Origin: Bryobacterales bacterium
GTDB lineage: Bacteria; Acidobacteriota; Terriglobia; Bryobacterales; Bryobacteraceae
Direction: 5' to 3'
Length of the DNA stretch: 64,000 bases
Assembly: GCA_963795935.1 (NCBI GenBank)
Contig: CAWCJO010000023.1
Coordinates: 33,688 to 97,687, forward strand
A model generated the notes under the pieces. It searched no databases, was not told the origin of the DNA, and saw only the letters and a list, made by a program, of their open reading frames with translations. Numbering within the stretch: the first letter of the stretch is position 1; every line of letters starts with the position of its first letter. Of the stretch, positions 21,688 through 42,488 are shown piece by piece. The translations under genes and the position numbers were made by a program.

Positions 21688-21720
21688 TTTTTCCAGTGTA
21701 CGCGGTAGAATCCAGGTGTT

Positions 21721-23286
21721 GTGACCAGGAGAGATTTTGTTCGCGCCAATGCTGCGGGGGCACTGGCGGCCACTCAGGCTTCGGCGGGAGCGGCGACGCA
21801 GGCTGGATCCGGAGCGGTAGCGGGCGCGGGAAAACAGCCCAACATACTGCTGATCATGGCGGATCAATTGACGCCTTTCATGACCAGCGTGTATGGACAG
21901 AAGGCCGCGCGCACTCCTAATTTGGATCGTTTGGCGAAGGGCGGGACGGTTTTTGACAATGCCTATTGCAACAGCCCGCTATGCGTGCCGAGCCGCACGT
22001 CGCTGTTTACGGGAACGCTGCCGGCCAAAATCGAGGCATGGGACAACGCCGCCGAATTCGCGGCGCACCGCCCGACCTTCGTGCATTATTTGCGGCGCGC
22101 GGGCTACCGCACGGTGGTATCGGGGAAAACGCATTTCATCGGACCCGATCAGATGCACGGCTTCGACGAGCGGTTGACGCCGTGCATTTTCCCGGCGGGT
22201 TTTGCGATGCTGCCGGACTGGCGATTGGGCGCGCGGCTCAATAATGGAACGTCGATGCAGAGCATGCTGCGCATGCTCGGGCCTTCCACGTGGACGAAGC
22301 AGCTCGGATACGACGAAGAGGCGTTTCAGCGTTCCATGGCGCGGCTGCGGGCTTACGCGACCGGGAAACGGGAGCAGCCGCTATTTCTAAATGTTTCGTT
22401 CACGCAGCCTCACGACCCTTTCACCACCACGAAGGAATTTTTGGATCTGTATCGCGCCGAGGACATGCCGCTGCCGCGGGATGACGGCGACATCAAGAAG
22501 CTGAGTCCTACGTATGAGTGGTTCGAAATTTTTCATGGCACAAATTTGGAACGGCTGCCGCCTGAAAAGATCCGCGAGGGGCGGCGCAACTATCTCGGCA
22601 TGATCTCCTGGGTAGACAACCGCGTTGGCCAGTTGATGGACGAGCTGGACCGTTTAAGGATGACGAACGACACGGTGGTAATTTTCACGAGCGATCACGG
22701 CGAGATGTGCGGCGAGCACGGGCAGTGGTCGAAGCGCTTGATGCTGGAATGGTCGGCGCGCATTCCACTGATTGTCAGCGCTCCCGGCCGATTTGCGGCG
22801 GGACGGCGTAATACGGCGCTGGTGTCGCTGGTGGATCTGTTCCCGACGCTGACGGATTTGGCGGGAGCGAAGCTCGAAACTCCGCTGGACGGCCGGAGCT
22901 GGATACCGCTGCTGAACGGAAGCGAAGACGGGCGGGAGCGCGAGGTGGTGGCGGAATATTTAGGCGAGGGGGCGCTCGAGCCCATTCGCATGTTGCGCTC
23001 CGGGCAGCGCAAAATTATCGTGACCAACGGCTACGGACCGCAGCTATTCGATCTGGAGCGCGATCCGGGGGAGACGGTGAATCTTTCGGGTGAGCGCGAT
23101 TACGCTGCGGTTGAAAAGAAACTGCTTGCGAAGGTGGAACAGAATTGGGACGGTCCGGGTCTGAAGCGGGCCGTTATGGGCAGCCAACAAGAGCGGCTGC
23201 TGATTCGATCGAGCGATCAACACGGCACGCCGGTGCATTGGGATTACGAGCCTAGCGAGCCGGGGCCTTATCGCGAACCCAAGTAA
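21721..23286 (+). CDS. Sulfatase (choline-sulfatase-like) with a Tat signal
   Basis: MTRRDFVRANAAG Tat motif, CVPSRTSLFTG FGly motif and a SDHGEM region. Intact 521 aa. Confidence 0.8.
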   Translation: MTRRDFVRANAAGALAATQASAGAATQAGSGAVAGAGKQPNILLIMADQLTPFMTSVYGQKAARTPNLDRLAKGGTVFDNAYCNSPLCVPSRTSLFTGTLPAKIEAWDNAAEFAAHRPTFVHYLRRAGYRTVVSGKTHFIGPDQMHGFDERLTPCIFPAGFAMLPDWRLGARLNNGTSMQSMLRMLGPSTWTKQLGYDEEAFQRSMARLRAYATGKREQPLFLNVSFTQPHDPFTTTKEFLDLYRAEDMPLPRDDGDIKKLSPTYEWFEIFHGTNLERLPPEKIREGRRNYLGMISWVDNRVGQLMDELDRLRMTNDTVVIFTSDHGEMCGEHGQWSKRLMLEWSARIPLIVSAPGRFAAGRRNTALVSLVDLFPTLTDLAGAKLETPLDGRSWIPLLNGSEDGREREVVAEYLGEGALEPIRMLRSGQRKIIVTNGYGPQLFDLERDPGETVNLSGERDYAAVEKKLLAKVEQNWDGPGLKRAVMGSQQERLLIRSSDQHGTPVHWDYEPSEPGPYREPK

Positions 23287-24233: not shown

Positions 24234-27200
24234 ATGCGAGCTATCTTGATCGGGGTCGTGTGCGCCGCGGCGATGTGGGCGCAAGTAGACACGGGCGCTG
24301 TTTCGGGCGTGGTCACGGACCGGACCGGGTCGGTTGTGCCAGGGGCGACGGTTCAAATCGTTCAGAAGGAAACGAATTTTCAAACCACCCTGCAGACCAA
24401 TGAGTCGGGATTTTATTCGGCTCCGTCGCTGCAGCCGGGGCAGTATCAGATCACGGTTACGAAAGAAGGCTTCCGGCCTCAAAAAAGTCAGGTATTCGAG
24501 GTTCGGGTACAGGATCGCGCGGAGCTGAATTTTCAGCTCGAAGTGGGCGCGACGACGTCAGAGGTGACGGTATCGGCCGCGGCGCCGCTGCTGGAATCGG
24601 AGACTTCGAATCTGGGGCAGGTGATCGAAGAGAAGACGGTCACCGATTTGCCGCTGAACGGACGCAGCTTCATACAACTGGCGACGCTGACGGCCGGAAC
24701 GCTGCCTTCGACGCGGACGCCGGAGCGCGACAATTTTATCTCGAATGGCGCGCGGGCGGTGCAAAACAGTTACCTGCTGGATGGTATCGACAACAAGAAC
24801 CGCATCCTGGGATTCGACAAGAGCTCGGCGCAGATCGTGCAGCCCATCGTGGATGCGATCGAGGAGTTCAAGGTACAGACATCGACGTTTTCGGCGGAGT
24901 TCGGGCAGGCGGCGGGCGGCGTGGTGAACGTGACGCTACAGATCGGGAACGAACAGCTTCCATGGCGATCTGTTCGAGTTTCTGCGCAACTCCGACCTGG
25001 ACGCGACGCCGTATTTCCAACCGGCGGGGGGCAAGCCGCTGTTTATCCAGAACCAATTTGGAGCGACGTTTGGCGGGCCGATCGTCAGGAATAAAACATT
25101 TTTCTTCGGGAGTTGGCAGAGCTCGCGAGAGGAAAATGCCGCTCCGCAGATCGCTTCCGTGCCGACGGCGGCGGAGCAGCAGGGCGTCTTCCCGTCCAAG
25201 ATCACGGACCCCGCGACGGGCGCGGCGTTCCCCGGCAACACCATTCCGATGAGCCGCTGGGATCCGGTTGCCGCGGCGCTGGTGGCTTTATATCCGGCGC
25301 CCAACCAGCCGGGCATTGTGAATAACTTTTATTACAACCCGAAGGAACGCGTCAGCAGCGACACTTATAATCTACGGCTCGATCATCATTTCAACTCGAA
25401 GGATTACCTGTTCGGGCGAATCTCGCAGGGCTGGGGAGAAAATTTTCTTCCCACGCTGTTGCCGCAACCGGCGAATCAACAGGGCTTCACGGATCTGACG
25501 CAGCGGCAAATCATGGTGAGCGAAACGCATACGCTGAGCGCGAACAAGCTGAACGAATTCCGGTTGGGTTTCACATACACGCTGAACAATCAGGACGTTC
25601 TGGGGCCGCGGCTGTTTTCGCAATTTGGGATCAAGGGCGCGCTCGACGAGCCGAGGATCAAGGGCTTGCCCGTGTTCACCATCACGGGCTTTTCCGGTTT
25701 GGGCACGCAAAACCCGGGCAACACGCCGATTCCGGCGTCGGGTAGCGGCAACTTTCCGGCCGAGAAATCGGGGAAACTGTGGCAGCTTCTGGATAATTTT
25801 TCCTGGATACACGACCGGCACTCGATCAAGTTCGGCGTCGATCTGGAGCGCGTCACGATTTTCGCGTATGCGACCAACAGCGCGCGGCCGACTTATACGT
25901 TCAACGGAACGTACACTGGTTCCCCTCTGGCCGATTTTCTGTTGGGATATGTTTACAGCGCGTCCACTTCGGAGCAGCAACTCGATACCCTGCAGCAGTA
26001 CGTTTACAACGGCTACGTGCAGGACGACTGGAAAGCGACGAGCAGGTTGACGCTCAACATCGGGTTGAGATATGAGCTGCCGACGCCATTCGTCGAAGCG
26101 CACGATCGCCAATCGAATTTCGTGCTGGACCAGGGGCCATGCTATTTGCAGCTCATCACGGTCGCTCAGGACGGGCAGTGCGGCATAGGACGAGCGTTGA
26201 CGCGGACGGATTACAACAACTTCGCGCCGCGAGTGGGGCTGGCGTATCAGGCGACGGGGAAGACGGTAGTCCGCAGCGGCTTCGGCGTTTTTTATGGGCG
26301 CGATGAAGACCTCGGAATTCAGCGGCGGTTGCCCAATAACCCGCCGTTCGTGACCAGCTCTTCGTTCACGGGGAGCCAGACTACGCCCACGTTCCTGCTG
26401 CAGAACGGATTCCCCTCGGATGCATTATCTCTGGCGAGCCCGAGCGCCACCGTGAACAGCTATCCGTTTAATTTCCCGGTCCCGTATGTGATTCAGTGGA
26501 ACTTAAACGTGGAACGGCAGCTGGGTGGGAACTTTGTCGCGCAAGTGGGCTACACGGGTTCGGAAGCGCACAAGTTGCCGGAGGTGGTCAACGTCAATCA
26601 GGCGTATCCGGGCACGGGAAACGTGAATGCGCGGCGTCCGTACCAGGGCATTGGCGATATTTTCTTCTATGGACCGCTGGACAATTCCACGTACAATGCG
26701 TTGATCGCGAAACTGGAGCGGCGCTTTTCGAAAGGCCTGAGCCTGCTCGCGTCGTACACGTATGGGCACTCCATTGACGGCGGCGGCAATCAGAACGACA
26801 GTAACGATCCGGGTCCGCAGAATCCGCGCGATTTGCAGGCACAGAAAGGCTCGTCGAATTTCGACGTGCGGCATCGTTTCGTGGTGAGCGGATTCTATCA
26901 ACTTCCGTTCGGGAAATCGGGCGGCTTCTTCTCGCCTCTGGTTAAGAACTGGCAGCTATCCGGAATCTTTTCGGCTCAAACCGGGCAGCCGCTGACGATT
27001 ACGCTGAGCACGGATCCGACGGGAACGGGCACGACGGCGCGGCCGAACCGGATCAGCGATGGCAATCTTCCAGCAGATGAACGGACGCCCACGCATTGGT
27101 TCGATACGGCGGCATTCGTCAACCCGGGTTGCGTGTGCTATGGGAATTCGGGCCGCGATATTATCAGGGCGCCCGGTTTCGTGGATCTCGACCTGGGAGT

Positions 27201-27384
27201 GCTGCGCGATTTTCTGATTGGGGAGCGGTTCCGTTTGCAGTTCCGGGCGGAATCGTTCAATTTGATGAACCATCCTAATTTTGGATTGCCGAACATGGTG
27301 ATTGGAAATCCCATGGCAGGCATCATCACGTCGGTGGTCAACCCGGAGCGTCAAAATCAGCTTGCATTGAAATTATATTTCTAG
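24234..27384 (+). CDS. TonB-dependent receptor (Acidobacteria type) with a +1 frameshift at ~24960
   Basis: Signal peptide plus CarboxypepD_reg motifs (GVVTDRTGSVVPGATVQIV...YQITVTKEGF), plug (VTDLPLNGRSF), and a barrel with terminal LALKLYF. Removing one C in cttccatgg restores ...NVTLQIGNEQLHGDLFEFLRNSDLDATPYF... across the two ORFs. Confidence 0.8.
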
Positions 27385-27400
27385 GCGGTTCTAAACACAT

Positions 27401-30388
27401 ATGGCATTCACGCGTTCACTGTTTGTAATCGCATTGACGGCCTCGGCGGCGATGGCCCAAGGTCCCGCGAGCGTTCGGATTCTGTTGGGCATTAGCGATA
27501 AGGTGGCGACGCCCTGGGACGGCTCGGTGGAAGTTGCAGGGAGCGGGACGGCGACGCTGGAGCCGTGGCGATTTGATGGCTCGGACACCATCTCGGGCAC
27601 GACGTGGAAGGCGAGCACGCACCAGGTGCGGCTGTTCAGTCAAGGAAGGCAGGTGAACGGAACGCCCATCCTGGACGTGGTGGCGAACGGCGTGGTCGTG
27701 AATGTGCCGCAGGCTTCCGGCGATACGGCGCTTCGCGTTAAAACGGCGCAGGGCAACTTCGACGTGAAGCTGAGCGAGATTCCGTATGGAACGAGCGTTT
27801 TGAAATTGAATGGGCGGGTGTTTGTGGATCGCGTGCCGGCGGCGCAACGTCTGACCGAGACTCCGGATGAAGAGGATTTTCCCGCGGCGACGACGGCAAA
27901 GAATGGCGATATCTGGATCGCGTACGTGGTGTTCCGCCATAATCCGAACCACGACGCGCTGGCGGCTCCAAGAACGACGCCGGTGACGGATTTTGCGGGT
28001 TTGAAAGCGCCGACGGGAGGAGATCGGATCATGGCGCGGCGCTATGCGAACGGGCATTGGGACGATCCGGTGGCGATGACGGATGGGGGCGGAGACCTGT
28101 ACCGCTGCTCGGTCGCGGTGGATGGACGAGGGCGTCCGTGGGTTTTCTGGTCCGCGAATGTCTCCACCGGTACTAGGGCCAACTTCGATATTTTCGGACG
28201 CGCGATCGAAAACGGAAGAGCGGGAAGACAGGTGCAGCTTTCGCGCGAGCCCGGATCGGATGTGGACGCCGTTGCGGCGACGGATTCGAATGGGGCGGTG
28301 TGGGTCGCCTGGCAGGGTTGGAGAAACGGGCGCGCGGGGATCTTCGCCGCGGTGCAGAACGGCGATGGATTTGCGGCGCCGGCGGCGGTTTCGAAGTCCT
28401 CGGGGAATGAATGGAATCCCGCGATTGCGGCCGCGAAGGGAGGACGCGTGACGGTTGCGTGGGACTCCTACCGCGCGGGGAATTACGACGTTTACGCGCG
28501 AACGGCCTCGGGCGCAAACAACTGGGGCGCGGAAACGCCGCTGGCGGCGACGGCGCGGTACGAGGCGTATCCATCGATCGCCTATGACGATTCGGGCCGG
28601 CTGTGGGTGGCGTATGAAGAGGGCGGCAAGGGGTGGGGCAAAGATTTCGGCGCTTATCGCACGGGCGGCGTGTCGGTCTATCAAGGGCGCGTGATTCGGA
28701 TTCGCGGATTCGAGCCGAATGGGCGCGCGGTGCAACTTCCGAGCGATGTCGCGACGGTGCTGCCGGGGATTCCGACGCTGAAGGCGGAGACCAATGGCAT
28801 GCCCAGCGGAAGCGACGGTCTGGATCCAGATCCCGCGGGGGCCAAGGATCGCGTTCCGGGGCGGCCGGTGCTGAATCAGCTCAACCCCAAGAACAGCCTG
28901 CCGCGGTTGCTGATCGACGGGTCGGGGCGGATGTGGCTGGCGTTCCGCAGCTACCATCCCATCTGGTGGAATCCGATCGGCACGGTGTGGACGGAATTCG
29001 TGGTTTCGTTCGACGGCGCGAGCTGGACGGGGCCGGTGTTTCTGCCGCACAGCGGAAACCTGCTGGACAACCGCCCGGCGCTGGCATCGGCGAGTGGGGG
29101 GGATTTGATGGTGGTCGGTTCGTCCGATGGGCGGCGCGATTACCTGTTAGGCGAGCAGCGCGGCGGAGGATACGGCGGCTTGGGAACGCCGCTGCGCGAT
29201 CCGTACAATAACGATCTGTTCGCGAATGAGATCGCGCTGGGGGCGGGGCGCGGATTGGAAAGGGTTGTGACGGCGGCGGCGCCGCGGGCGGGCGAGGCGC
29301 CGCCGGGGGCGGCTCAGGAAGCGGCCGCCATCCAACGCGTGCGCGAATATCGAATGCCTTCAACTGGAATGCGAATCGTGCGCGGGGAGTTCCACCGGCA
29401 CAGCGAGCTATCGCACGACGGCGGGTATGATGGCACGCTGTTCGACCAATGGCGCTACATTTTAGACTCCGCATCGCTCGACTGGGTGGGATGCTGCGAC
29501 CACGACAACGGCGGCGGCCGCGAGTACACGTGGTGGCTGGCGCAGAAGCTGACGGACATTTATTACGCGCCCGGGCAATTCGTGCCCATGTTCAGTTATG
29601 AACGGAGCGTTGCGTATCCGGAGGGGCATCGCAACGTGATTTTCGTTCAACGCGGCATCCGGACATTGCCACGTTTGCCGAAGATGGCGCCGGATACGCC
29701 GGGGCACGCTCCGGACACGCAGATGCTGTACGCGTATCTGAGATTTTTCAACGGCGTTGTGGGCTCCCACACGAGTGGAACCAACATGGGGACGGATTGG
29801 CGCGACAACGATCCGAATCTGGAGCCGGTAGTGGAGATTTATCAAGGCGACCGGCAGAGCTACGAAATGCCGGACGCGCCGCGATCGAGCTCGGCCGATG
29901 ACGCGATTGGGGGATGGCGTCCCAAGGGTTTCGTCAATCTGGCGCTTGCGAAGGGCTACCGGCTGGGCTTTCAAGCCAGCTCCGATCACGTCTCCACGCA
30001 TTTGAGCTACTGTAATATCTTCGTGAAAGACGCCACGCGCGAATCCGTTTTCGACGGGTTGAAGAAGCGGCACGTTTACGGCGCGACCGACAACATTCTG
30101 GCCGACGTTCGCAGCGGCGATCACATGATGGGCGACGTTTTTTCGACGGCGTCGCCGCCGGCGTTACAGGTGAGCCTGACCGGCACTTCGAACTTCTCGA
30201 AAGTGTACGTCGTGAAAGACAACAACTACGTCTATTCGGTCAATCCCAATTCACCGACAGTGTCTTTCTCGTGGATCGATAACGCCGCCGAGCCATCGAA
30301 GACCAGCTACTACTACGTTCGCGGCGAGCAGGACAACGGCGAGATCGTGTGGGTTTCGCCGATGTGGATCACATACACCGGAAAGTAA
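27401..30388 (+). CDS. Large secreted protein, paralog A (995 aa): N-terminal beta-propeller with repeated W-x-A/F-W motifs plus a C-terminal PHP-like metal-dependent phosphoesterase domain (possibly DUF3604-type)
   Basis: Signal peptide. Repeated blades (WVFWSAN, WVAWQGWRNG, VTVAWDSYRAGNYDVYAR, WVAYEEGG, WLAFRSY). The C-terminal domain carries GEFHRHSELSHDGGYDG...CCDHDNGG...SDHVSTH, i.e. a PHP-style HxH...D...H metal-ligand pattern. It starts 17 bp after the TonB receptor stop. Confidence 0.6.
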   Translation: MAFTRSLFVIALTASAAMAQGPASVRILLGISDKVATPWDGSVEVAGSGTATLEPWRFDGSDTISGTTWKASTHQVRLFSQGRQVNGTPILDVVANGVVVNVPQASGDTALRVKTAQGNFDVKLSEIPYGTSVLKLNGRVFVDRVPAAQRLTETPDEEDFPAATTAKNGDIWIAYVVFRHNPNHDALAAPRTTPVTDFAGLKAPTGGDRIMARRYANGHWDDPVAMTDGGGDLYRCSVAVDGRGRPWVFWSANVSTGTRANFDIFGRAIENGRAGRQVQLSREPGSDVDAVAATDSNGAVWVAWQGWRNGRAGIFAAVQNGDGFAAPAAVSKSSGNEWNPAIAAAKGGRVTVAWDSYRAGNYDVYARTASGANNWGAETPLAATARYEAYPSIAYDDSGRLWVAYEEGGKGWGKDFGAYRTGGVSVYQGRVIRIRGFEPNGRAVQLPSDVATVLPGIPTLKAETNGMPSGSDGLDPDPAGAKDRVPGRPVLNQLNPKNSLPRLLIDGSGRMWLAFRSYHPIWWNPIGTVWTEFVVSFDGASWTGPVFLPHSGNLLDNRPALASASGGDLMVVGSSDGRRDYLLGEQRGGGYGGLGTPLRDPYNNDLFANEIALGAGRGLERVVTAAAPRAGEAPPGAAQEAAAIQRVREYRMPSTGMRIVRGEFHRHSELSHDGGYDGTLFDQWRYILDSASLDWVGCCDHDNGGGREYTWWLAQKLTDIYYAPGQFVPMFSYERSVAYPEGHRNVIFVQRGIRTLPRLPKMAPDTPGHAPDTQMLYAYLRFFNGVVGSHTSGTNMGTDWRDNDPNLEPVVEIYQGDRQSYEMPDAPRSSSADDAIGGWRPKGFVNLALAKGYRLGFQASSDHVSTHLSYCNIFVKDATRESVFDGLKKRHVYGATDNILADVRSGDHMMGDVFSTASPPALQVSLTGTSNFSKVYVVKDNNYVYSVNPNSPTVSFSWIDNAAEPSKTSYYYVRGEQDNGEIVWVSPMWITYTGK

Positions 30389-30403: not shown

Positions 30404-33400
30404 ATGGACGAAGAACGGCAGGAACGAATTCGCTATTACGCCTTTGCCGCCGTGGTCGGCATTTTGCTGGCCCTGAACGGCCTCGGAATCTTCCGGACTT
30501 TTTTGGGGATCGACACGGCGGTGTTCATTACGCTGCTGGCCGGTTACAAGACTTTCTACAACTCGATTTCGGCATTGTTGGAGAAGCGCATCTCGGCGGA
30601 TATCGCGTTGTGCGTCGCGGTGATCGCGGCGCTGGCGGTGGGCCAGTATCTTGCCGCCGCGGAAGCGATGTTCATCGTGCTGGTGGGGGAAGGCCTGGAA
30701 TCGTATGCGGCGGGCCGGACCGCGGCCGCGATCGAGCGATTCGTGCAGCAATTGCCGCGCACCGCGCGCGTGTTGCGGGAGGGGCGCGAGGAAGAAGTAG
30801 ACGCCGAATCGCTGGCGCGTGGACGATCTGATCCTGGTGCGCGCGGGTGAAAGGATCGCCGCCGACGGCGTGGTTCAGGACGGTTTCTCGGCGGTGGATG
30901 AAAGCTCCATCACGGGCGAGCCATTGCCGCGGGAGAAGCAGCCGGGCGACGAGGTATTTTCCGGGGCATTGAACGGCGCGGGGCTGCTGCGCGTGCGCGT
31001 TTCGCGCGCCGGGTCGGATACAACTCTGGCGCGCGTGATCAAGCTGGTCGAAGAAGCGCAGCAAAAGCGCGCGCCGGTGGAACGCCTGGCGGATAGAGTG
31101 GCGAAGTACTTCCTTCCGGCGTTGTTGCTGGCGGGCGCGTTGACGTTTTACTTCACGCACGACTGGCTGCGAACGGTTTCGGTCCTGATCGTGGCTTGTC
31201 CCTGCGCGCTGATTTTGGCCACGCCTACCGCGATGGTGGCGGCAATCGGAGGTCTGGCGCGGCGGGGCATTCTGGTGCGCGGCGCGGCGGTGCTGCAGAG
31301 GGCGGCGCGCGTCGGCACGATGGTCTTCGATAAGACCGGAACCATCACGGAAGGACAATTCGAGGTTGTCGCCGTTATTGCTCTGGACCGGACAGAGGAC
31401 GAGCTGCTGGCGCTGGCGGCGGGAGCGGAGCGTGCTTCGGATCACGCCTTGGCGCGCGTGATCGTGGAGGAAGCGGAGCGGCGGGGCATCGCCTCTTCGG
31501 CGCCTGACAGCGCGCAGGCGCTCCCGGGGCGCGGCGTGGAGTGCGCCTTCGGCGGGCGTACGGTGCGGGTGGGCAATGCGGGATTTTTAGAGCAGGCGGG
31601 CATTCGTAATACGGCGGCGCTGCTCGAGGAAGCGGACCGGCTCGGCGCCTCCGCCGTGCTGGTATCGGATGGCGATCGCCTGGCGGGCGGGATCCTGCTT
31701 CGCGACCGGCTGCGCGACGGAGTGCGTGCAGCGATGGCGGGCTTCGACGAGCTTGGCATTACGCGCAAGTTCATGCTGACCGGAGATAGGCGGCGCGCGG
31801 CGGAAGCGATCGCGCGGGAAGCGGGAATTTCCGAACTCGAAGCGGAGCTGTTGCCGGAACAGAAGGTGGAGCGCATTCGGGCGTTGATGTCGCAGGGCGC
31901 GGTCGCGATGGCCGGAGATGGGATCAACGATGCGCCGGCGCTGGCGAGCGCAAGCGTTGGAATCGCGGTGTCGGGCGCAAGCGATATTACGGCCGAAGCC
32001 GCGGACGTAGTCTACCTGCCGCGAAGTTTGGAGAAGCTTCCGAAATTTTTCGAGGTTAGCCGGCGCGCGGTCTCGACGGCCTGGCAGAACATTATTCTTT
32101 TCGCCGGGGTCGTGAATGTGGGCGCCGTGATTTGCGCCGCGACGGGCGTGATCGGACCGATCGGGGCGGCGCTGACGCACCAGCTTTCCTCGTTTCTGGT
32201 GATGTTGAACTCGCTGCGGCTGCTGCGGGTGGAGCGGTCCGAGTCGCGCGTGGCGCGCTATGCGACTTCTCTGGCAGCGAGGTTGGCGTCGCGCACGGCG
32301 CTTCCACAAGCGTGGGACCGGCTGCGAAATGTCACGGGGCGCATCGATATTTCCGCGGGCATTGATTGGCTGACGGCGCACCGTCAATCGCTCGCGCGCC
32401 CGGCGCTTGCGGCGGTGGCGTTGCTGGCTATATTGAACGGCGCTTACATCATCCGGCCCGACGAGGTCGGCATTGTGCAGCGCTTTGGCCGCAAGCTGCT
32501 GCCTTATAGCGAGCCGGGGCTGCATTACAAGCTGCCGTGGCCGGTGGAGCGATTGACGCGCATACAATCGCGGCGCGTGCGGCGGCTGGAGATCGGGTTC
32601 CGCTCGAATTCAACATCGCCCGAGGCCGAGCCGGCGGCATACGAATGGAACGTTCAGCACGCCGCTGGACGGTTTCAACGCCGGCCGGAAGAAGCATTGA
32701 TGCTGACCGGCGATCAGAACATGATCGAGCTGAATGCCACGATTCACTACGATCTGCCGCATCCGGACGATTTCCTATTTCGTCAATTCGATGCGGAGGG
32801 AAGTCTGCGCGCGGCGGCCGAATCCGCCATCGAATCCGTCATTACGGTGACGGGGCTTGATGCCGTCCTGACATCCGGAAGGAGAGCAATTGAGGAGAAG
32901 GCGCGCCGCGAACTGCAGAAGCGGCTGGACCGTTATGGATGCGGGATTCGGGTTCGGAGCTTGCGGCTGGAAGACGTGCATCCGTCGGTCGAAGTAGTGG
33001 ACGCGTTTCGCGACGTCTCCGGAGCGTACGAAGAGAAGAACCGGTTGATCAACGAAGCGGAAGGTTATCGCAACGAGCAGATCGCGCTGGCGCGCGGCAA
33101 TGCGAAGGCGCGCATTGCGAACGCGAACGCGTACACCGACGGGCCGCGTGAACCGGGCGGAGGGCGATGCGAGCCGTTTTGAGCAGCGCGAGGCCGCATT
33201 CCGGGCGACCCCCGGGCCGGCCGAGACGCGGCTCTATTTCGAAACGATCGACCAGGTGCTTCCGGGGAAGAGGAAATTGATCGTCGATCACACCAAGTCG
33301 GCGCGCCGTCTGTTTCTTCTTGAAGACGGCGCGGTGCTGGGCGGCACGCCGGCGGGTCCACTGTTCGCTCCCCCGGCGCAGGGCGCAAGAATACCAGAAG

Positions 33401-33405
33401 AGTAA
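30404..33405 (+). CDS. P1B-type heavy-metal-translocating ATPase continuing in frame into an HflK-like SPFH/band-7 domain. Two +1 frameshifts (near 30815-30825 and 33140-33150) break the reading frame.
   Basis: ATPase motifs: ITGEPLP, TM6 CPC (VACPCALILATP), DKTGTIT, GDGINDAPAL, final TMs ...LNSLRLL. There is no stop after them. The frame continues through a TM helix (ALAAVALLAILNGAYII) into IVQRFGRKLLPYSEPGLHYKLPWPVE...DQNMIEL...EAEGYRNEQIALARGNAKARIA (HflK). After a frameshift it continues as AEGDASRFEQREAAFRATPGPAETRLYFETIDQVLPGKRKLIVD. Confidence 0.6.
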
Positions 33406-33416
33406 TAGAAACTTCA

Positions 33417-34304
33417 ATGCATCACATTCACCGGAAGTACGTTGCAGGCGCGGCAATCGCGGCGGGTCTGCTTTGCTATCTCACCTTTTTCACCGTGAAG
33501 GAGACCGAATTCGTTCTCGTGACGCAATTCGGACGGCCGCTCTACACGGTTGCGTCCGCGGGATTGCACGTCAAGTGGCCGTTCCAAAGCGCGACGCGCT
33601 TCGACCGGCGGCTGCGCATCTACAATCCGAGGCCGTCGGAGTTTTTGACGCGCGATAAAAAGAACGTCGTCATCGACAATTACGTGGCCTGGAAAATACA
33701 AGATCCGAACCGCTTCGTGCAAACCGTGGGCGATCCGGTGGCGGCCGAGATGCGCCTGCACGACATTGTCTGGTCGGGGCTTTCAGCGGCGCTCGGAACC
33801 CACGATCTGGATTCGCTCGTCTCGGCGGATGAATCCAAAGTTCAAGCCGGCAATCTTCTGGACCAACTCACGTCCAATACGGACCGCGCGGCGCTGGAGC
33901 AATACGGCATCGACGTGGTTGACGTTCGCATCAAGCGTCTGAATCTGCCGGAACAGAACAAACAGAGCGTATACGCGCGCATGCGGGCTGAGCGCGAACG
34001 AATTGCGCGGCAATACCGGGCTGAAGGCGAAGAACAGGCGCTCGCGATCCGGGCGGACGCGGACCGCCAGAAAGAAGAAATTTTGTCGGTCGCTTATAAG
34101 CAGGCGGAAACAGTTCGCGGGCAGGGCGATGCGGATTCCACGCGAATTTATGGCCAGGCGTATTCGAAAAACCCGCGGCTGTATAAACTTCTTCGCACGC
34201 TGGAGTCTTATAAGAAGATATTCGACGATAAGACGACCGCGATTTTGAGCTCCGATTCCGAATTGCTGAAGGTGCTGATCCACGGCGAGGCCGGCGTGAA
34301 ATGA
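33417..34304 (+). CDS. hflC: HflC-like SPFH/band-7 membrane protein
   Basis: N-terminal TM helix, VKETEFVLVTQFGRP, an SPFH core and a C-terminal coiled region with ERIARQYRAEGEEQA. ~295 aa, as for HflC. Confidence 0.75.
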   Translation: MHHIHRKYVAGAAIAAGLLCYLTFFTVKETEFVLVTQFGRPLYTVASAGLHVKWPFQSATRFDRRLRIYNPRPSEFLTRDKKNVVIDNYVAWKIQDPNRFVQTVGDPVAAEMRLHDIVWSGLSAALGTHDLDSLVSADESKVQAGNLLDQLTSNTDRAALEQYGIDVVDVRIKRLNLPEQNKQSVYARMRAERERIARQYRAEGEEQALAIRADADRQKEEILSVAYKQAETVRGQGDADSTRIYGQAYSKNPRLYKLLRTLESYKKIFDDKTTAILSSDSELLKVLIHGEAGVK

Positions 34305-35287
34305 GCTCGCTGCTTATCGAGCCGGCAACGGCCGAACCGCAACCGCGCTTCGTGGAAGCGGCGCCAAGCGCTCCTCCACGGCGGCGGCGGCGCGTGGGCG
34401 AGATTCTGGTCGTCCTCTGGGCGATTTCAGGCGTGTATCTTGTCCGTCCCGATCAACAGGCGGTTGTGACGCGATTTGGCGCCGTGGTGGAGTCGCGGGT
34501 CTATCCCGGTTTGCATTACGCGCTGCCGTGGCCGCTGGACCGCGTGTACAAAGTGAAGGTGCACCAGACGCAGCGCCTCGCGATCGGCGGCGATGTGGCG
34601 GATGCGGTGCTCGGGCGCACGCAGCCGCTCGCTTCTCAGTTTCTGACGGGCGATCAGAACATTATCAACATGCGGGTAGTCGTGCAATATTCGGTTGCCG
34701 TGCCGGTGGACTATCTTTTTTCCACTCTCGATGTCGCGAAATGCGCCGGTGCGGCGGTGGAAGCGGAACTCGCGCGGCGCCTGGCGCACGGTAGCGTGGA
34801 TGCCGTGCTTACGACCGAAAAGTTGGCGATCCAGGACGAGGCTCTCTCGACGGCGCAGAAACGTCTGAACCAGTACCGGACGGGCGTGAAGCTTTCGACC
34901 GTCAATATTGAAAGCGTCGCTCCACCGCCCGAAGCGGCGGACGCATTTCGGGATGTCGCCAGCGCGCGCGCCGATACCGCGCGGATTGTCGATGAAGCGC
35001 AGGGTTACGCGAACGATCTCATTCCCCGGGCGCGCGGCGAGGCGAAGCAACTGACGGAAGCGGCCGAAGCGTACAGGGCGTCCAAAGTGAACGAGGCGGC
35101 CGGCGAGGCGGCGCGGTTCACGGCGGTTGCGGCGGAGTATTCGAAGGCTGCCGATGTCACCGGGAAGCGGCTATATATCGAAGCGATGGAGCAGATTCTT
35201 CCGAAGATCCGCAAAATGATTGTCGATCCGAACGGGAACCTGGATCTCTCGATTATCCGCAAAGGCGAAGCAGCCCCGAAGCCGTGA
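34301..35287 (+). CDS. hflK: HflK-like SPFH/band-7 membrane protein (second HflK copy, intact)
   Basis: Pro/Arg-rich N-terminus, TM helix, VRPDQQAVVTRFGAV...PGLHYALPWPL, LTGDQNIINM, and a C-terminal EAQGYANDLIPRARGEAKQL...AEYSKAADVTGKRLYIEAMEQILPKIRKMIVD. Confidence 0.75.
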   Translation: MSSLLIEPATAEPQPRFVEAAPSAPPRRRRRVGEILVVLWAISGVYLVRPDQQAVVTRFGAVVESRVYPGLHYALPWPLDRVYKVKVHQTQRLAIGGDVADAVLGRTQPLASQFLTGDQNIINMRVVVQYSVAVPVDYLFSTLDVAKCAGAAVEAELARRLAHGSVDAVLTTEKLAIQDEALSTAQKRLNQYRTGVKLSTVNIESVAPPPEAADAFRDVASARADTARIVDEAQGYANDLIPRARGEAKQLTEAAEAYRASKVNEAAGEAARFTAVAAEYSKAADVTGKRLYIEAMEQILPKIRKMIVDPNGNLDLSIIRKGEAAPKP

Positions 35288-35757
35288 ATCGCGATCGAAT
35301 AGCGAAGGCGGCGACGATCGTTGTCGTGATCGTTTTGCTTGGTGCTGTGGTCATTCGCAGGAGCGGCGTGCGCCTGGCATCTCGTCCCGATCCTGCTCCG
35401 CAGGATGCCATTTACCAGATGCTCGAAGCGGCGCGCGCGGGCAACACGGCAGCGTACCTGGCGCGCTACACGGGACAGATGCGAAGCGCGCTGAACCAAA
35501 CCATCGCGGAAAAAGGGGAAGCGGGGTTCAAGAGTTACTTGCAATCGAGCAACGCGGAAATTAAGGGTCTGGCGGTTTTTGGGCCGAAGCAGGTTTCCGA
35601 TAATGAAGTTGCGGTGCGGGTGGAATATGTTTATCGGGAACGCAACGAGGTGCAGGTCTTCTATCTCGTGAAGACCGCGGGAATCTGGAAAATCTCGCGC
35701 GTGGACAATACGGAGCGGATCAAGACTCTGGTTCCGTATGGAACGCCGGTCCAGTGA
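35284..35757 (+). CDS. Hypothetical membrane-anchored protein (single TM plus ~120-aa periplasmic domain)
   Basis: TM helix ATIVVVIVLLGAVVI followed by a small globular domain. Overlaps the hflK stop by 4 bp, so it is probably part of the same operon. Confidence 0.5.
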   Translation: MNRDRIAKAATIVVVIVLLGAVVIRRSGVRLASRPDPAPQDAIYQMLEAARAGNTAAYLARYTGQMRSALNQTIAEKGEAGFKSYLQSSNAEIKGLAVFGPKQVSDNEVAVRVEYVYRERNEVQVFYLVKTAGIWKISRVDNTERIKTLVPYGTPVQ

Positions 35758-35935: not shown

Positions 35936-38838
35936 GGGTTGTTTCGCGTAGTTTACCCAGATCGGACTGGACCAGGCCAGATTGCGGTCTTTCTGCATTA
36001 CGCGGACGTAGTACCAGCTCTCTTTGCCGCCCGGGTTGCTATCGACATAGGTGAACTCGGCGCGATCGGACGTGCCTGGCGTTTGAAATACAAACGTTCC
36101 GTCTTTCACGATTTCGATCTTCTCGATATCGTCCGTGCCCTGCACCTTTATGAGGAACTGCGGCGCGGCGGAGGCGGAAAACGCATCGCCCATGAGGTAT
36201 TGGCGGCCAGCGGCATCGCGCGCCTCGAAATCGAGAACGATGTTGTCCGTAGCCCCATAGGCGTGCCGTTTGCGCATGCTCTCCACGATGTCCGCGCGAT
36301 TCGTCGTGGGCGTGTAAATCAGAGTGTACGATGAGTGCGTGGAGACGTGATCGGAGCTCGATTGCACGCCGAGCTTGTAGCCTTTGGCGAGCGCATTCCA
36401 GTACATTCCGGAGGGCTGATATTTGCCGTGAGCGGGAACGCTGTAGTTGTCGCTGTCGGCGCGCGGCGCTCCAGCATATTCGCTGCTCGCATCGTAGCCC
36501 TGATAAATCTCCACGAGAGGTTCCAGGACCGGATCGTTGTCGCGGTAATCGCTGCCCTGATCGGTGGCGAGGGAGTGCAGCATACAGATGCCGCGATTTT
36601 GTCTGAGATAGGGATACAGAATCGGCCCGGTGTGTATCGTTCCGCGCTGCTCGGCCTGGCTGATCGGCAGCGTTCTGACGCCGCGCTCGGGAAAAACGAC
36701 ATTGCGGTGGCCGTTCGGAAACGGCACGCTTCGCTCATAGCCGAACAGGGGCGTCATCCGTCCTCGAATGTGAAACAGATCGATGGATTTTTCCGTGCGC
36801 CACCAAGTGTATTCGTTATCTTGTCCCTCGTTATGATCGGAGATAATGCCCGTATCCATGGAGGCTGCGTCCAGCATGTAGCGCCAGTAGTCTTCAACCG
36901 AACCGTCGCCCGCGCCGTCTTGCGAGATTTCCGTGTGGCGGTGGAAATCGCCGCGCAGGATGCGAAGCTCATTGCCCGCAAGGTTGACGCGATAGGAACG
37001 GATGCGTTGCACGTCCTCCGGCTCATGGCGATGAATGGGTGTTTCGTTCCCGCGTGGATCCGCGAAATCGGCGAGCAACGCCGGCGGAGACGCTACCGAG
37101 CGATGGGAATCGGGGCGCCGAAAATCAGATCATTCGGGCCATTGCGGTTGACCCCGGCCGGGCCGCCCATCAGCATGGTGCGGTTATCGTTCACCCACAC
37201 CATCCAGTTGCCGGCCGCTCCCGAACGGATCTGCATGGGGCTTTCCGGGCGCGAGCTGGCCTCGGGAATGGGGGCCAGCGGAGTCCAGCGGTCGCCTTCC
37301 AAAGTAGTCAGGAAACGCTCCCAGCGTCCGCCGTTGGCCCAGTGATCGGAGCGGTTATTATTCACGGCGGTGCGAAGTTCGAGCTCGATCCAAATGCGCC
37401 CGGAAGCGTCGCTCAACACGCGCGGCAACTCCACGAAGCGGTTATAACGGCTGGGAATCGAGTCGGACAGATTGGCCGCGGGCTGCTTCCAGCGGCCGTT
37501 TTCGAGCACCGCAAGGCGCGGATGGCGATCGAAGTACAGAGTGGTGCCGCGCCACATGTCGTCGCGATTCCAGTCCTTGCCCCAGTTCGAGCCGGACTCA
37601 TCCCACGCCACCCACGCGCGATCCTGCTTGTCCACCGCAACCGTGGGATGCGCCTGAAAACGTACGGACTGCGTAACCTGATCGAGCGGTCCGAGCGTTC
37701 CATCGGAGGCGACGCGGCGCAGGAAGATATCGTAATTTCCGGTGCGATAACTATCCCAGACGACGTAGAGATTGCCTTGGGAATCGCACGCGCCCTGGGG
37801 GGCCCAGGCGCTCGGCCCGCTGATCTCGGTTGCGGTGGACCATTGATCGCCGTTCAACTTGCTCCAGTAGACGTGCGATACGCCGTCCTGATATCCGGTC
37901 CAAATCAGGTGCAGGTTTCCCGCCGCATCGGCGATCATTTGATGAAACATGTTGGGGCTATTGGCGGACGTGATCTGCCGCGGCGCCGACCAGGTCTCGC
38001 CGGAATAAACCCGCGCCCACAGGTTCCAATCCTCATTGGCGCGCTCGGACCAGACGACCCAAATACGGCCGCGGCCATCTTCGGCGATTGCGGTCCGATA
38101 CACGTCGCCTTTTTGAGTGGTGAGCCGGAATGGCACGGACCATCCGCCGGCGATCGAGTGCCGCACGTAAACGTTGTCGCCGTCGTTGCGGTAGGCTTGC
38201 CAGGCAACCCACACCGAGCCATCTTTTGACAGCGCCAGGGAGGGATAATCGTGCTGCTCGACCTCAGCGGCGGCCTGGGGCGGCGAGATCTGCTGCGGCG
38301 TCAGCGTCGGCTGCACCAGGATATCGCCGTCGTTGAAGGAAAGCCTGCGGCCGATCCGCATATCGCCAATCGCGATCGAGAAATTCGCGGATGACGTGCG
38401 GACCTGCGCCGTGGCGGAGGCGGGCGCGTCGACCGTTACGTCCACGCCGGCGGGAACGATGTTTTGCGCAACGGCTTGGCCGATGGGGGTGGGCGCATCC
38501 GGCTGGTTTTCGAAATTGATCCGGCGCAATTGGAGCTTCCAGGCAGAGCCGCCTTCGACTGCATCGGCGGGACCAAAGCGCCACGGCAAGATGCGGACCA
38601 CCGTGCCTTGGCTCAGCGTGATGCTCCCCGAGTAGTTGCCGGCAAGATCCTGTTTCTCCCCGAAGGTTATGCGGAAGGAAAGAGTGTTGGCTGAGGCAGA
38701 CTGCGGCCGCGCGCCGATGGCCTGCAGAGGCGCGGAGCGAGTTCGCTCGGTCACGACGAGCGTCGCGAACAATAGAAGAATTGAAATCGCCGCGACGCCG
38801 GACGCGGCCACTGGATGCCTCTGTGTTATTTTTCTCAT
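35933..38838 (-). CDS. Paralog B of the secreted beta-propeller + PHP-like phosphoesterase protein, split into two ORFs (37093-38838 N-terminal, 35933-37078 C-terminal) by an apparent frameshift near 37078-37095
   Basis: Same architecture as 27401-30388, with ~45% identity by eye in the C-terminal domain: GDFHRHTEISQDGAGDG...ISDHNEG...EYTWW...ERSVPFPNGHRNVVF...SDHVSTH...KRHAYGATDNI. N-terminal blades WVAWQAYRNDGDNVYVR, WVVWSE, HLIWTGY, YVVWDSYRTGNYDIFLR, WVAWDESG. Signal peptide MRKITQRHPVAASGVAAISILLLF. Confidence 0.6.
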
Positions 38839-39039
38839 CGCGCCAATCTCAATCAGCTTATTACACTCGAGACCCGGATGCGTGGCCGGGTATGCACGTA
38901 GCCTGAGACATGCAATCGGGAGCTGAGGACGCGCCGATCTTCGGCGGCAGGGGTTCTTATCGCGGCGTAATCGTCCTCGGACGGATGTATACTCTTGAGG
39001 ATCGGCGGCCAAACGGAAATTCGGATAGAGGAGCCCCTA

Positions 39040-42000
39040 TGTTGACATCGATACTGCGAGCCGGACTGATATGCATGTCATCCGGCATCATGCTGGGCCA
39101 AACCGGCGGCGAAATCACGGGCGAGGTCAAAGATCAGAGCGGCGCGATCGTCGCCGGAGTTGCCGTTACCGCTACCAATACCGAGACCAACGTGGCGCGC
39201 TCGACGGTGAGCAATAACGCGGGACTTTATAGTTTCCCCGACCTGGCGCCCGGGAAATATCAGGTGAAGGCCGTTGCAACGGGTTTCGAGACCAGCCTGG
39301 TGAATCTTGAGCTTCAGGTGCAACAGACCGCCCGCATCGATTTCAATCTCAAGTTGGGGACTGCTTCGCAGGCGGTCGAAGTCAGCGCGAACGCCGAACT
39401 GCTGAGCACCGAGAACGCGACGGTGGGCACGGTTATCGAGCAAAAGCGAATAAGCGAGCTGCCGTTGAACGGGCGAGACTTCTTCAGTCTGGTGGCGCTG
39501 AGTCCCAACGTGACCTACGGATTTACTCCCGCGCAGCAGGCCAGCAGCCGCCTGGGCGGCACGCGCTCCACCATCACCATGGCGCTGTCGGGGGCGCGCG
39601 CGACGTGGGAAAACTACACTCTTGACGGCGTCACCAACACCGACGTCGACTTCAACACCTACATCGTGCTGCCGTCGGTGGAGGCTCTGCAGGAGTTCAA
39701 AGTCCAGTCCGGAATCTATCCCGCGGAGTTCGGCCGGGAAGCGGGGCAGGTCAACGTCTCCACCAAACCAGGCACAAACACGTATCACGGGACCGCTTTC
39801 GAGTTCCTTCGCAATAACGATCTTGACGCCCGGCCTTACGACTTCAGCGCCGCTACCCGCACCGCAACCAATCCGTCTCCAAAGAGCAACCCGTACCGCC
39901 AGAATCAATTCGGTTTCACTTTGGCGGGGCCGGTCCAGATTCCAAAGCTGTTCAACGGAAAGAACCGCCTCTTCTTCATGTCGAACTTTGAAGGATTCCA
40001 TTCCCGTCAGACTCTTACGCAATTCGCCACAACAATGACGCAAGCGATGCGAAACGGAGATTTCTCCGTCATCCCGACCCCTTTGCAGGACCCGCTCACG
40101 CGCACGGGGACATACCCCAACATCGCCTCTACGCCATTCCCGGGAAACCAAATTCCGGCCAGCCGCATCGACAAAAACTCGCTGCTGCTCATGAAGTTCT
40201 TTCCACTGCCGAATCAGCCCGTCGCCACGGGGGCGCCGAATCGGAATTATGAGTATCTGGCCGATACGCCGGTCGACAAAAACCAGGTCACCGAACGCAT
40301 CGATTTCACCGAGAGCGAGAAATCGCAGTGGTTCGGCCGCTACAGTTGGACGGACGAAAGTACCCTTACTCCGGGCATCACGAGCGACGATGGGCAAACT
40401 TTGTACACCAGGGCCAGCCAGTGGGTGCTGTCAAATGTGCGGATCTTCTCGCCGACGAAAGTCAACGAGGCACGGTTTGGCTACAGCTCGCTGTTCAACA
40501 ATATCACTCAGCAGTTGGCGGGCATCGAAAATGTAGATTCCGAGATCGGCGTGCCGGTATCGATTACGGACAAGAATTCCTGGGGCATCCCCAACATCCA
40601 ACTAACCAACAATCTAACCAGCTTTGGCAACCCCACCAGCAGCCCGTTCCAAATTAACGACAAGTATTTTCAGTTCGTGGATAACTACTCCTGGATCATC
40701 GGGAAACATGCGCTGCGCATGGGCGGAGAGTACCGCTACAACCAGTTTCCGCAGCTCGGCAACGAATTTCCCCGCGGCCAGTTCTTTTTCAACGGCCAGT
40801 TCACGAACGCCATTACCCCGTCCGCGCAGACCGGCGGCTATTCGGGCGCCGACTTCCTCATGGGGGATATCCAAAACAGCATTATTGCCGTCGCGCTCGC
40901 TTCGGCCAATTTCACCAATGGCGAATGGGCGGCTTACATCGACGACACCTGGAAAGTACTGCCAAGCCTGACCATCACTGCCGGTCTGCGATGGGAGGTG
41001 GCGCAGCCGTTGCTCGACACATCCGGCAACGAGGTAGGCGTGCAGCTCAATGCGGCGCTTCCCTCGGTCCCGGATGTGACGGATCCAAGTCTTCAACCCG
41101 TTTACGTCCGGTCGGGAAGCGGCGGCTTTTATGACGGCCTCAACTTCAATTACGAGCCTTATTGGCAGTCCGTGGCGCCGAACGCCACGGGGTACCCCGC
41201 GTTGCAGGTTGCGCGCGACGGCCGCATGGGCCCACGCCTGATCGACACCAATTACAAGAACTTCGCCCCGCGGCTCGGGATTGCCTGGAGCCCCTCGAAC
41301 AAATGGGTGGTCCGCACCGGTTTCGGCATATTCTACTCGCAGGAAAGCAAGAACTCCATCTTCGATCTCAATCGCGGATTGGGAGGCCGCACGGGGCAAG
41401 TCACGCAAACTACCTATGGTCAGCCCACGATCGCTTACCAGAATTTTATCAATACTTCCGCCCTTCCGGTCACTATTCCCATCGGCCTTACTTGGGGCGC
41501 CGACCACATACTGCCGACCACCTACAGCATGCAGTACATTCTTAACATCCAGCGCACGCTTGGAAGCTCAACGACTCTGGAAGTCGGTTACAACGGCTCG
41601 GAAAGCCGCCATTTGGACGCCCTAATAAACGAAAATGCGCCCATACCCGGAACCGCCGCCGTCCTGACCCGCCTGCCCTATCCGGAATTCGCGGCTGCCG
41701 GGATACAGTTTCTGAGGGCCGACGGCGTGGGGAATTACAACGGCCTCGGCGCCAAGCTGAGCCACCGCTTCGGAAACGATCTGACGGCCTTGATCAGCTA
41801 CACCTATTCCAGATCCATCGATGACAGCAGCGCGATCCGCGGCCCCGGGAACGACTTCGTGCCTCCCAATGCGCGCTGCCGGTCGTGCGACTACGGCCCG
41901 TCCGACTTCAATATTCCGCAGCGTTTCGTTGCCTCCATCCTCTACACGCTGCCGTTCGGTAGAGGACGGCAATTTCTGGATCGTGGAGGGATCGTGAACC

Positions 42001-42488
42001 AGTTGGTTGGGGGCTGGGAGTTCAGTACCATCACCACGGTTCAAAGCGGCGCGGCGACTGAAACGGCATCATGGGACTCGGCCGGCGTGGTCTTCTCGCC
42101 GAGCGGCGAACGGCTCAACTGCCTTGCCGGCGTGAATCCGGTTCTGCCCAATCCCAACGCGAGTGGCGGGTACGGTTGGTATAACGCGGCGGCATTCTCA
42201 AACCCGGTCGCCGGCACGTTCGGAAACTGCGGCCGCAACAACTTGAGGGGGCCGCGAATGGTGAATGTCGATTTCTCGGCGATCAAGCATTTCCCGATCG
42301 CTGAAAGACAGTCTCTCCAGTTCCGCGTGGAAATGTTTAACGCTCCGAACCATGTAGAGTTAGGCACTCCGGGTTCGGTGAGCTGGGGAGGCAGCTCGAA
42401 TGTTGCGCCACCCTCGAATTTCGGCGTCATTACTACGACCGCCGCAAGCATGCGCCAGATTCAGTTAGCGCTCAAGTACGATTTCTGA
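39040..42488 (+). CDS. TonB-dependent receptor (Acidobacteria type), intact
   Basis: Strong SD (ggatagaggag) 6 nt upstream of the ATG. CarboxypepD_reg motifs (GEVKDQSGAIVAGVAVTATN...YQVKAVATGF), plug (ISELPLNGRDF), and a long barrel ending LALKYDF. Confidence 0.85.

Follow-up and report, generated by a model that had tools for sequence, protein, structure and literature searches.

A P1B-type metal ATPase fused to an HflK-type SPFH protein in Acidobacteriota and Planctomycetota

In Escherichia coli, HflK and HflC alternate in a dome of 24 subunits, closed or nautilus-shaped, in which the SPFH domains of HflK are contacted by FtsH (PMC12048511). The effect of SPFH cages (HflK/C, prohibitins, stomatins, flotillins) on the membrane proteins that they enclose is debated, and it is difficult to establish which proteins are their clients. 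Here we describe a gene at positions 30404-33405 on the forward strand of a 64,000-nucleotide stretch of DNA from a Bryobacterales bacterium (contig CAWCJO010000023.1; the whole stretch is called the window below). This gene almost certainly encodes a single polypeptide of about 1000 amino acids, which begins as a P1B-type ATPase and continues through a linker and a further transmembrane (TM) helix into the SPFH domain and coiled coil of an HflK. A P1B ATPase spans the membrane with eight TM helices, and its two termini are cytoplasmic. A precedent for an extra domain after M6, the last of these helices, is provided by the P1B-5 ATPases, which carry a cytoplasmic hemerythrin-like domain for the binding of metal or oxygen at their C-terminus; in our case, by contrast, an extra TM helix would take a scaffold domain across the membrane. 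Genetic coupling of an SPFH scaffold to a specific membrane-protein partner is also known from stomatin/NfeD operons, but in these the scaffold is paired with a free-standing NfeD protein or protease and not with a transporter, and the connection is an operon link rather than a covalent one (PMC2636767). The 2009 survey of prokaryotic SPFH proteins mentions no ATPase (PMC2636767).

Each half of the fusion can be compared with a well-known family. As in the E. coli HflK/HflC-FtsH system (7vhp, 7wi3, 9cz1), a single predicted membrane anchor precedes the SPFH domain, hflC directly follows the gene for the K subunit, and the C-terminal ~320 amino acids of the fusion pass the HflK equivalog model. 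Unlike in E. coli, a complete P-type ATPase with a predicted eight TM helices stands in place of the short, disordered and dispensable cytoplasmic N-tail, and the operon additionally encodes a free HflK paralogue and a membrane protein of ~155 amino acids. Similarly, helices MA to M6 and the A, P and N domains align with those of the P1B ATPases of known structure, namely CopA (7r0g/3j09, 3rfu), CadA (7qbz) and ZntA (4umv), whereas the fusion lacks the HMA domain, has VN in place of YN and HxxSS in place of MxxSS, and runs at its C-terminus into HflK instead of ending after M6.

In the list of open reading frames (ORFs) of the window, the gene is spread over three ORFs in successive forward frames, at 30404-30850, 30819-33182 and 33100-33405. 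The middle ORF, 787 amino acids in length, carries the Pfam domains E1-E2_ATPase, Hydrolase (HAD) and Band_7 with no stop codon in between. We aligned the gene at the nucleotide level with two intact orthologues, which are 86% and 74% identical to it, and found exactly two differences that are not multiples of three, both of them insertions of one nucleotide; the other indels are all triplets. The first insertion is a C at 30818 (GCG-C-GTG GAC), the sole indel of this kind in its region, and the second is a G at 33138 (TAC ACC-G-ACG GGC), within the C-terminal coiled coil of HflK. Deletion of these two bases yields a clean ORF of 3000 nucleotides, corresponding to 999 amino acids and a stop codon, and a hand-joined product, one residue off the repaired ORF, is 92% identical over 100% of the length to an intact orthologue of 1000 amino acids (P0001). 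With G 33138 removed the protein reads AYTTGRVNRAEG, which matches P0001 exactly at that site. The preliminary description of this locus, made from the letters of the sequence, had followed the ATPase frame past LNSLRLL, without a stop, into an SPFH domain; it had placed an additional TM helix and an HflK-like SPFH domain about 60 residues further on, and had reported two +1 frameshifts, one in the actuator domain and one in the C-terminal helix of HflK. Domain typing and alignment bear out all three of these observations.

The ATPase half starts with a segment (30404-30817) that encodes the N-terminus, the putative TM helices MA, MB, M1 and M2 and the beginning of the actuator domain; its counterpart in intact orthologues is residues 1-138, and from residue 22 it can be aligned to AfCopA (7r0g). 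Past the inserted C, the ATPase core (30819-32225; Pfam E1-E2_ATPase, 7e-47; Hydrolase, 4e-28) comprises the remainder of the actuator domain, TM3-TM4, the N and P domains and TM5-TM6. It contains the TGE motif of the actuator domain (30912-30920, with TGEP extending to 30923), the CPx-type motif CPC within VACPCAL in TM4 (31197-31205), the phosphorylation motif DKTGT (31329-31343), the hinge motif GDGINDAP (31914-31937) and THQLSS in TM6 (32175-32192), and it ends with NSLRLL at the close of the last ATPase helix (32208-32225). The motifs DKTGT, TGE and GDGxNDxP are invariant in both family alignments. P0001 reaches 552.5 bits with the NCBIfam heavy-metal P1B model TIGR01525 (ATPase-IB_hvy; cut-off 346) and 454 bits with TIGR01512 (IB2_Cd; cut-off 313). 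The best PDB match is AfCopA (1.8e-107); LpCopA, CadA and ZntA are the other leading matches, and the E-values range from 1e-107 to 1e-92. The alignment to AfCopA extends from residue 22 through M6. In a simple hydropathy scan, not all of the helices can be told apart.

Past NSLRLL the frame reads on through RVERSESRVARY... The linker of ~56 amino acids (32226-32393) is free of stop codons and rich in lysine and arginine (12 K/R against 4 D/E), varies between species in sequence and length, and is predicted to be cytoplasmic. The linker leads into a ninth hydrophobic helix, ARPALAAVALLAILNGAYII (32394-32453), a hydropathy peak corresponding to residues 662-680 of P0001 and the counterpart of the HflK membrane anchor. 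The HflK-type SPFH domain and first coiled coil follow at 32454-33137, starting at RPDEVG (32454); the Pfam Band_7 match covers ~32448-33065 (8.6e-18) and scores 65 bits on the window ORF against a cut-off of 23.6. Beyond the inserted G, the C-terminal coiled coil and tail (…RLYFETIDQVLPGKRKLIVD…) occupy 33139-33405, with the stop codon TAA at 33403-33405. Residues 681-969 of P0001 score 213 bits with the NCBIfam equivalog model TIGR01933 (hflK), whose cut-off is 159.4, and E. coli HflK (7vhp) is matched in the PDB with 2.5e-37 over its residues 147-367, a stretch that takes in SPFH2, the coiled coils and the C-terminal region. Because P1B ATPases have an even number of TM helices and this one is followed by a K/R-rich linker and one further helix, and because of the orientation of E. 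coli HflK, the SPFH domain is predicted to lie on the periplasmic side.

The continuity of the two halves is conserved well beyond this genome. A word-indexed protein search returned at least 120 full-length matches of 950-1018 amino acids, mostly from Bryobacteraceae and other Acidobacteriota, with 67-92% identity, ~100% coverage and the same three Pfam domains. A scan of one genome per species found relatives in 233 genomes, of which the best 80 loci were analyzed, two of them being cut by contig ends; in each locus the linker was located by mapping through pairwise alignment. A single stop-free frame of ~990-1010 codons covers the ATPase, linker, helix and SPFH domain in 80/80 of these loci, and thus the fusion is kept intact in at least 80 acidobacterial species. 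The linker ranges from 50 to 84 amino acids and takes 20 distinct lengths, every one of them in frame; its 5,538 codons include no in-frame stop, compared with 158 and 46 stops (204 in total) in the other two frames. The complete lack of stops, which is far beyond chance, together with 20 in-frame lengths is the pattern expected if a single polypeptide is selected for, and does not suit a lost stop codon. The window gene differs from the 86% identical orthologue chiefly in the third base of its codons: the rates at positions 1/2/3 are 0.056/0.013/0.33 in the ATPase, 0.21/0.10/0.36 in the linker and 0.068/0.039/0.28 in the SPFH domain, which indicates that the gene was under purifying selection until, at most, very recently.

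More distant members were sought by searching cluster representatives at 50% identity exhaustively with HMMER. Of the 150 best clusters, which were assessed, 79 have both halves, and 61 of these are full length (987-1301 amino acids), with identity down to ~33%; CPC is present in 57 of the 61 full-length representatives, and eight divergent cluster members were confirmed as fusions by Pfam. One divergent member has planctomycete homologues, including a protein of 1099 amino acids encoded in the complete genome of Symmachiella dynata (CP036270.1), and a third lineage carrying the fusion is represented by an assembly labelled "bacterium" (GCA_040752695.1). The fusion is therefore a family present in at least two phyla, Acidobacteriota and Planctomycetota.

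Several other explanations have to be considered for what is seen at this locus. The preliminary description had raised the alternative that the stop codon of the ATPase was lost and that a GTG at ~32245 starts an independent HflK, and had set beforehand, as a refutation test, a comparison of orthologous loci. The comparison found no stop between ATPase and hflK in any of the 80 best species loci, all of which are continuous, and for the family a lost stop is thereby refuted. That the window nevertheless holds two genes, with a frame opened by a lost stop or by an assembly join at 32.2-32.3 kb, is in our judgment highly improbable. In-frame GTG codons do exist within the linker, at 32229 and 32250, the latter being close to the proposed position and having a GGAG 15 nucleotides upstream, and the same operon includes a free-standing hflK2. 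However, this GGAG is dictated by the conserved RVER codons, and the segment around GTG 32250, situated in the non-conserved and indel-rich linker, is gapped or different in most homologues; moreover, indels in the linker are always multiples of three, and the frame is open in the 80 species, the at least 120 proteins and the 61 full-length clusters, which come from several lineages. It is also conceivable that one chain gives rise to two working proteins, either by cleavage of the linker or by a second, internal start, and that the fusion serves only to secure co-expression, 1:1 stoichiometry and co-insertion of a pump and an HflK subunit. No part of the fusion is less conserved than the linker, in length as in sequence, and the linker is poorly modelled (AlphaFold2 pLDDT below 50 for residues 606-644), and the HflK partner FtsH is a membrane protease, all of which would suit such a scheme. 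On the other hand, the alignments reveal no conserved cleavage motif or internal start, and upkeep of the frame across phyla exceeds what co-expression needs, for which adjacent or overlapping genes such as hflC and hflK2 suffice; we consider that this scheme has a rather slim chance of being correct.

The two frameshifts, which the preliminary description thought would complicate the interpretation, are indeed present but are probably not biology, as similar insertions occur elsewhere on the contig. A nirB-like gene for a nitrite reductase large subunit (20033 to 17613, reverse strand) contains inserted bases at G 19781, C 19735 and C 18978; Pfam finds its Rubredoxin_C domain split between two ORFs, and deletion of the three bases restores one ORF of 806 amino acids. 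A TonB-receptor-like gene (CarboxypepD_reg/Plug/beta-barrel; 24234-27384, forward strand) is broken into two ORFs by a +1 frame change near 24940, whereas its 95%-identical orthologue is a single gene of ~1050 amino acids. In a DUF3604/Reg_prop gene of 966 amino acids (35936-38832, reverse strand), a paralogue of the gene at 27401-30388, the frame changes at 37093-37107 through two bases that are inserted 14 nucleotides apart relative to the orthologous locus. In total, seven or eight frame-breaking single-base insertions occur in 64 kb, in four unrelated genes, and because the same type of lesion is spread over these genes, the two frameshifts of the fusion gene are most likely errors of the assembly consensus. 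If instead both insertions were real, this copy would be a genuine and very recent pseudogene and the fusion protein would be lost, which we judge unlikely. There are reasons to take that possibility seriously: two independent frame breaks fall within one gene of 3 kb, none of the 80 other species has a frame break, the insertions lie outside long homopolymers, and those in the window are clustered in few genes, which are possibly decaying. Nevertheless, at least four unrelated genes share the same lesion, one inserted base, which is G or C where it could be pinned down (the break in the TonB-receptor-like gene is typed only as a +1 shift, and the nirB-like gene has three insertions); the third-position bias relative to the orthologue gives no sign of relaxed selection; and the close relatives come from long-read metagenome assemblies, according to their record titles. 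Single-base indels are common in long-read metagenome assemblies. Programmed translational frameshifting that regulates production of the fusion was also considered, since both shifts have the same +1 direction, and was rejected: neither site is found in the two aligned orthologues or in the 80 species loci, no slippery or stall context is conserved, and identical lesions occur in unrelated genes nearby, which leaves this explanation with next to no probability.

The class of the ATPase and its likely substrate were assessed from the metal-binding motifs. A Pfam scan of the window ORFs found no N-terminal HMA metal-binding domain. In the Argüello classification, Cu+/Ag+ pumps (P1B-1) are recognized by NX6YNX4P in TM5 together with MX2SSX5N in TM6, and Zn2+/Cd2+/Pb2+ pumps (P1B-2) by a lysine in TM5 together with DxG in TM6. 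The first signature does not fit the fusion, whose TM5 reads ...AGVVNV..., with valine for the tyrosine of CopA, and whose TM6 reads HQLSSFLVMLN in the window, with histidine where CopA has methionine. The P1B-2 lysine and DxG were not seen when the alignments were inspected by eye, and no search was aimed at them; the score with TIGR01512 (IB2_Cd) nevertheless shows an affinity to this group at the level of sequence. As judged from its TM5 and TM6 residues, the ATPase falls outside the canonical Cu+ pumps. The ion that it transports would probably be a divalent transition metal and not Cu+, on account of the CPC, VN and HxxSS motifs and of the Cd/Zn/Mn-type annotation of its closest unfused relatives. 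The family defines a P1B subgroup with CPC, VN and HxxSS and with no metal-binding domain.

These unfused relatives are short P1B ATPases of ~620-650 amino acids with CPC and H(N/E/Q)xxS motifs, which are ~40-45% identical to the fused ATPase, are likewise free of a metal-binding domain, and are named in their source records "cadmium-translocating" or "putative manganese/zinc-exporting". The TM6 histidine is invariant in the fused ATPases and in these closest unfused relatives. Unlike the fusion, they stop a few residues after NSxRLL. No hflK or hflC was found beside the unfused ATPase at the two loci that were inspected. At the locus of the closest one (JAGTRC010000013.1, labelled Bathyarchaeota), a Band_7/NfeD pair is located ~3 kb upstream, with CbiQ/ABC cobalt-type genes in between; this may be a coincidence or may reflect a looser association between pump and SPFH protein.

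The fusion gene is followed by a compact set of genes on the same strand. Only 11 nucleotides downstream lies hflC (33417-34304, 295 amino acids), which scores 216.5 bits with TIGR01932 against a cut-off of 134. Its stop codon overlaps the start (ATGA) of hflK2 (34301-35287), an unfused paralogue of 328 amino acids that scores 219.6 bits with TIGR01933 against a cut-off of 159 and is only ~35% identical to the HflK part of the fusion. The stop of hflK2 in turn overlaps the start of a gene (35284-35757) for a protein of 157 amino acids, which has an N-terminal membrane anchor and a weak Rv0361 C-terminal-like/DUF4179 match (NF051431, 1e-6, below the cut-off) and appears to be translationally coupled to hflK2. 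In acidobacterial loci with enough downstream DNA, hflC is directly downstream of the fusion in nearly all cases and the order fusion, hflC, hflK2 is found in essentially every one; the ~155-amino-acid protein is encoded downstream in most acidobacterial loci. The third lineage has the same module, including the ~155-amino-acid protein (33% identity, 2e-21). The order in Symmachiella dynata is fusion, an ORF of 103 amino acids, HflC and an HflK-like protein; this 103-amino-acid ORF has no family match, and no ~155-amino-acid anchored protein follows hflK2 in that genome.

For the topology, the assembly of a ring, the metal and the physiological role, we infer the following. The HflK moiety of the fusion would join HflC, and probably also the free HflK2, in a ring or dome of the HflK/C type. 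HflK2 could act as a spacer subunit that relieves crowding, so that pumps are tethered only at some of the K positions, and a covalent bond would thus keep metal pumps at the edge of an SPFH membrane microdomain. Such an arrangement might result in clustered or localized metal export, in delivery of metal into the lumen of the dome, or in turnover or control of the pump that depends on SPFH proteins or FtsH. Taken as a whole, that is the gene together with the tethering of a metal pump to an HflK/HflC ring, we regard this explanation as somewhat favored.

A number of points weigh against it. Cleavage of the linker or internal initiation may be compatible with the sequence. That a ring would form with HflC and HflK2, on which of its sides the pumps would sit and whether FtsH would take part are all inferred, and a motif scan of the window found no ftsH signature. 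The assignment of the metal draws on motifs and on names that relatives received by automatic annotation. Insertions in the window are somewhat clustered, with three in the nirB-like gene and two in the fusion gene. Finally, the AlphaFold2 model of the 1000-amino-acid orthologue, built from an input alignment of 28 sequences, is poor (mean pLDDT 58, pTM 0.33) and was not used for geometry or fold searches.

A more specific version of the tethered pump is a metal-handling nanocompartment, in which fused pumps line the HflK/HflC dome and discharge a transition metal into its periplasmic lumen, where client apo-proteins are metallated or the metal is sequestered from the remaining periplasm. The candidate clients would be the secreted PHP/DUF3604-like proteins of ~990 amino acids or the anchored protein of ~155 amino acids. 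We hold this version, including its clients, to be speculative and quite improbable; if it were true, SPFH cages would gain a new function and a definite client, marked by its covalent attachment. A secreted DUF3604/PHP-like protein of ~990 amino acids is encoded immediately upstream of the fusion at ~20 of the 80 loci, and at ~45 its gene is no more than 8 kb away. The position of the DUF3604-like gene next to the fusion may point to a functional connection, such as a metallated enzyme in the periplasm.

The fusion is a widespread, conserved and undescribed architecture in which each half comes from a well-known family. Our search of the full-text literature, a scope that leaves subscription-only journals outside, found no paper describing a pump-HflK fusion. 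The preliminary description had called such a fusion novel, which is right in the sense that it is undescribed and uncharacterized; it is not unique, however, and belongs to a large family under generic automatic names. It has been deposited hundreds of times as "FtsH protease activity modulator HflK", "Cu+-exporting ATPase" or "copper-(or silver)-translocating P-type ATPase/HflK protein", and the Symmachiella dynata protein appears in UniRef as "cation-translocating P-type ATPase". Current names such as "HflK" or "Cu+/Cd2+ ATPase" cover one half each and hide the other. The family can be regarded as a natural experiment, in which one defined client, a metal P-type ATPase, is welded to an HflK subunit and in which at least two phyla have retained the arrangement, along with HflC and a further HflK that is free. 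It offers a directly testable system with a named and sequenced carrier, Symmachiella dynata, and bears on whether the pump is inside or outside the ring, on how the ring affects transport or turnover, and on the role of FtsH.

The module is flanked on both sides, at 24234-30388 and 35936-42488, by a pair of genes for an outer-membrane barrel protein (CarboxypepD_reg + OMP_b-brl_4) and a secreted DUF3604/PHP-like protein of ~990 amino acids; the paralogues of the two flanking pairs are ~32% identical. Further upstream there are two divergent sulfatase genes (Sulfatase + SGSH_C), at 20125-21867 on the reverse strand and 21721-23286 on the forward strand, whose ORFs overlap by ~150 nucleotides at their 5' ends.

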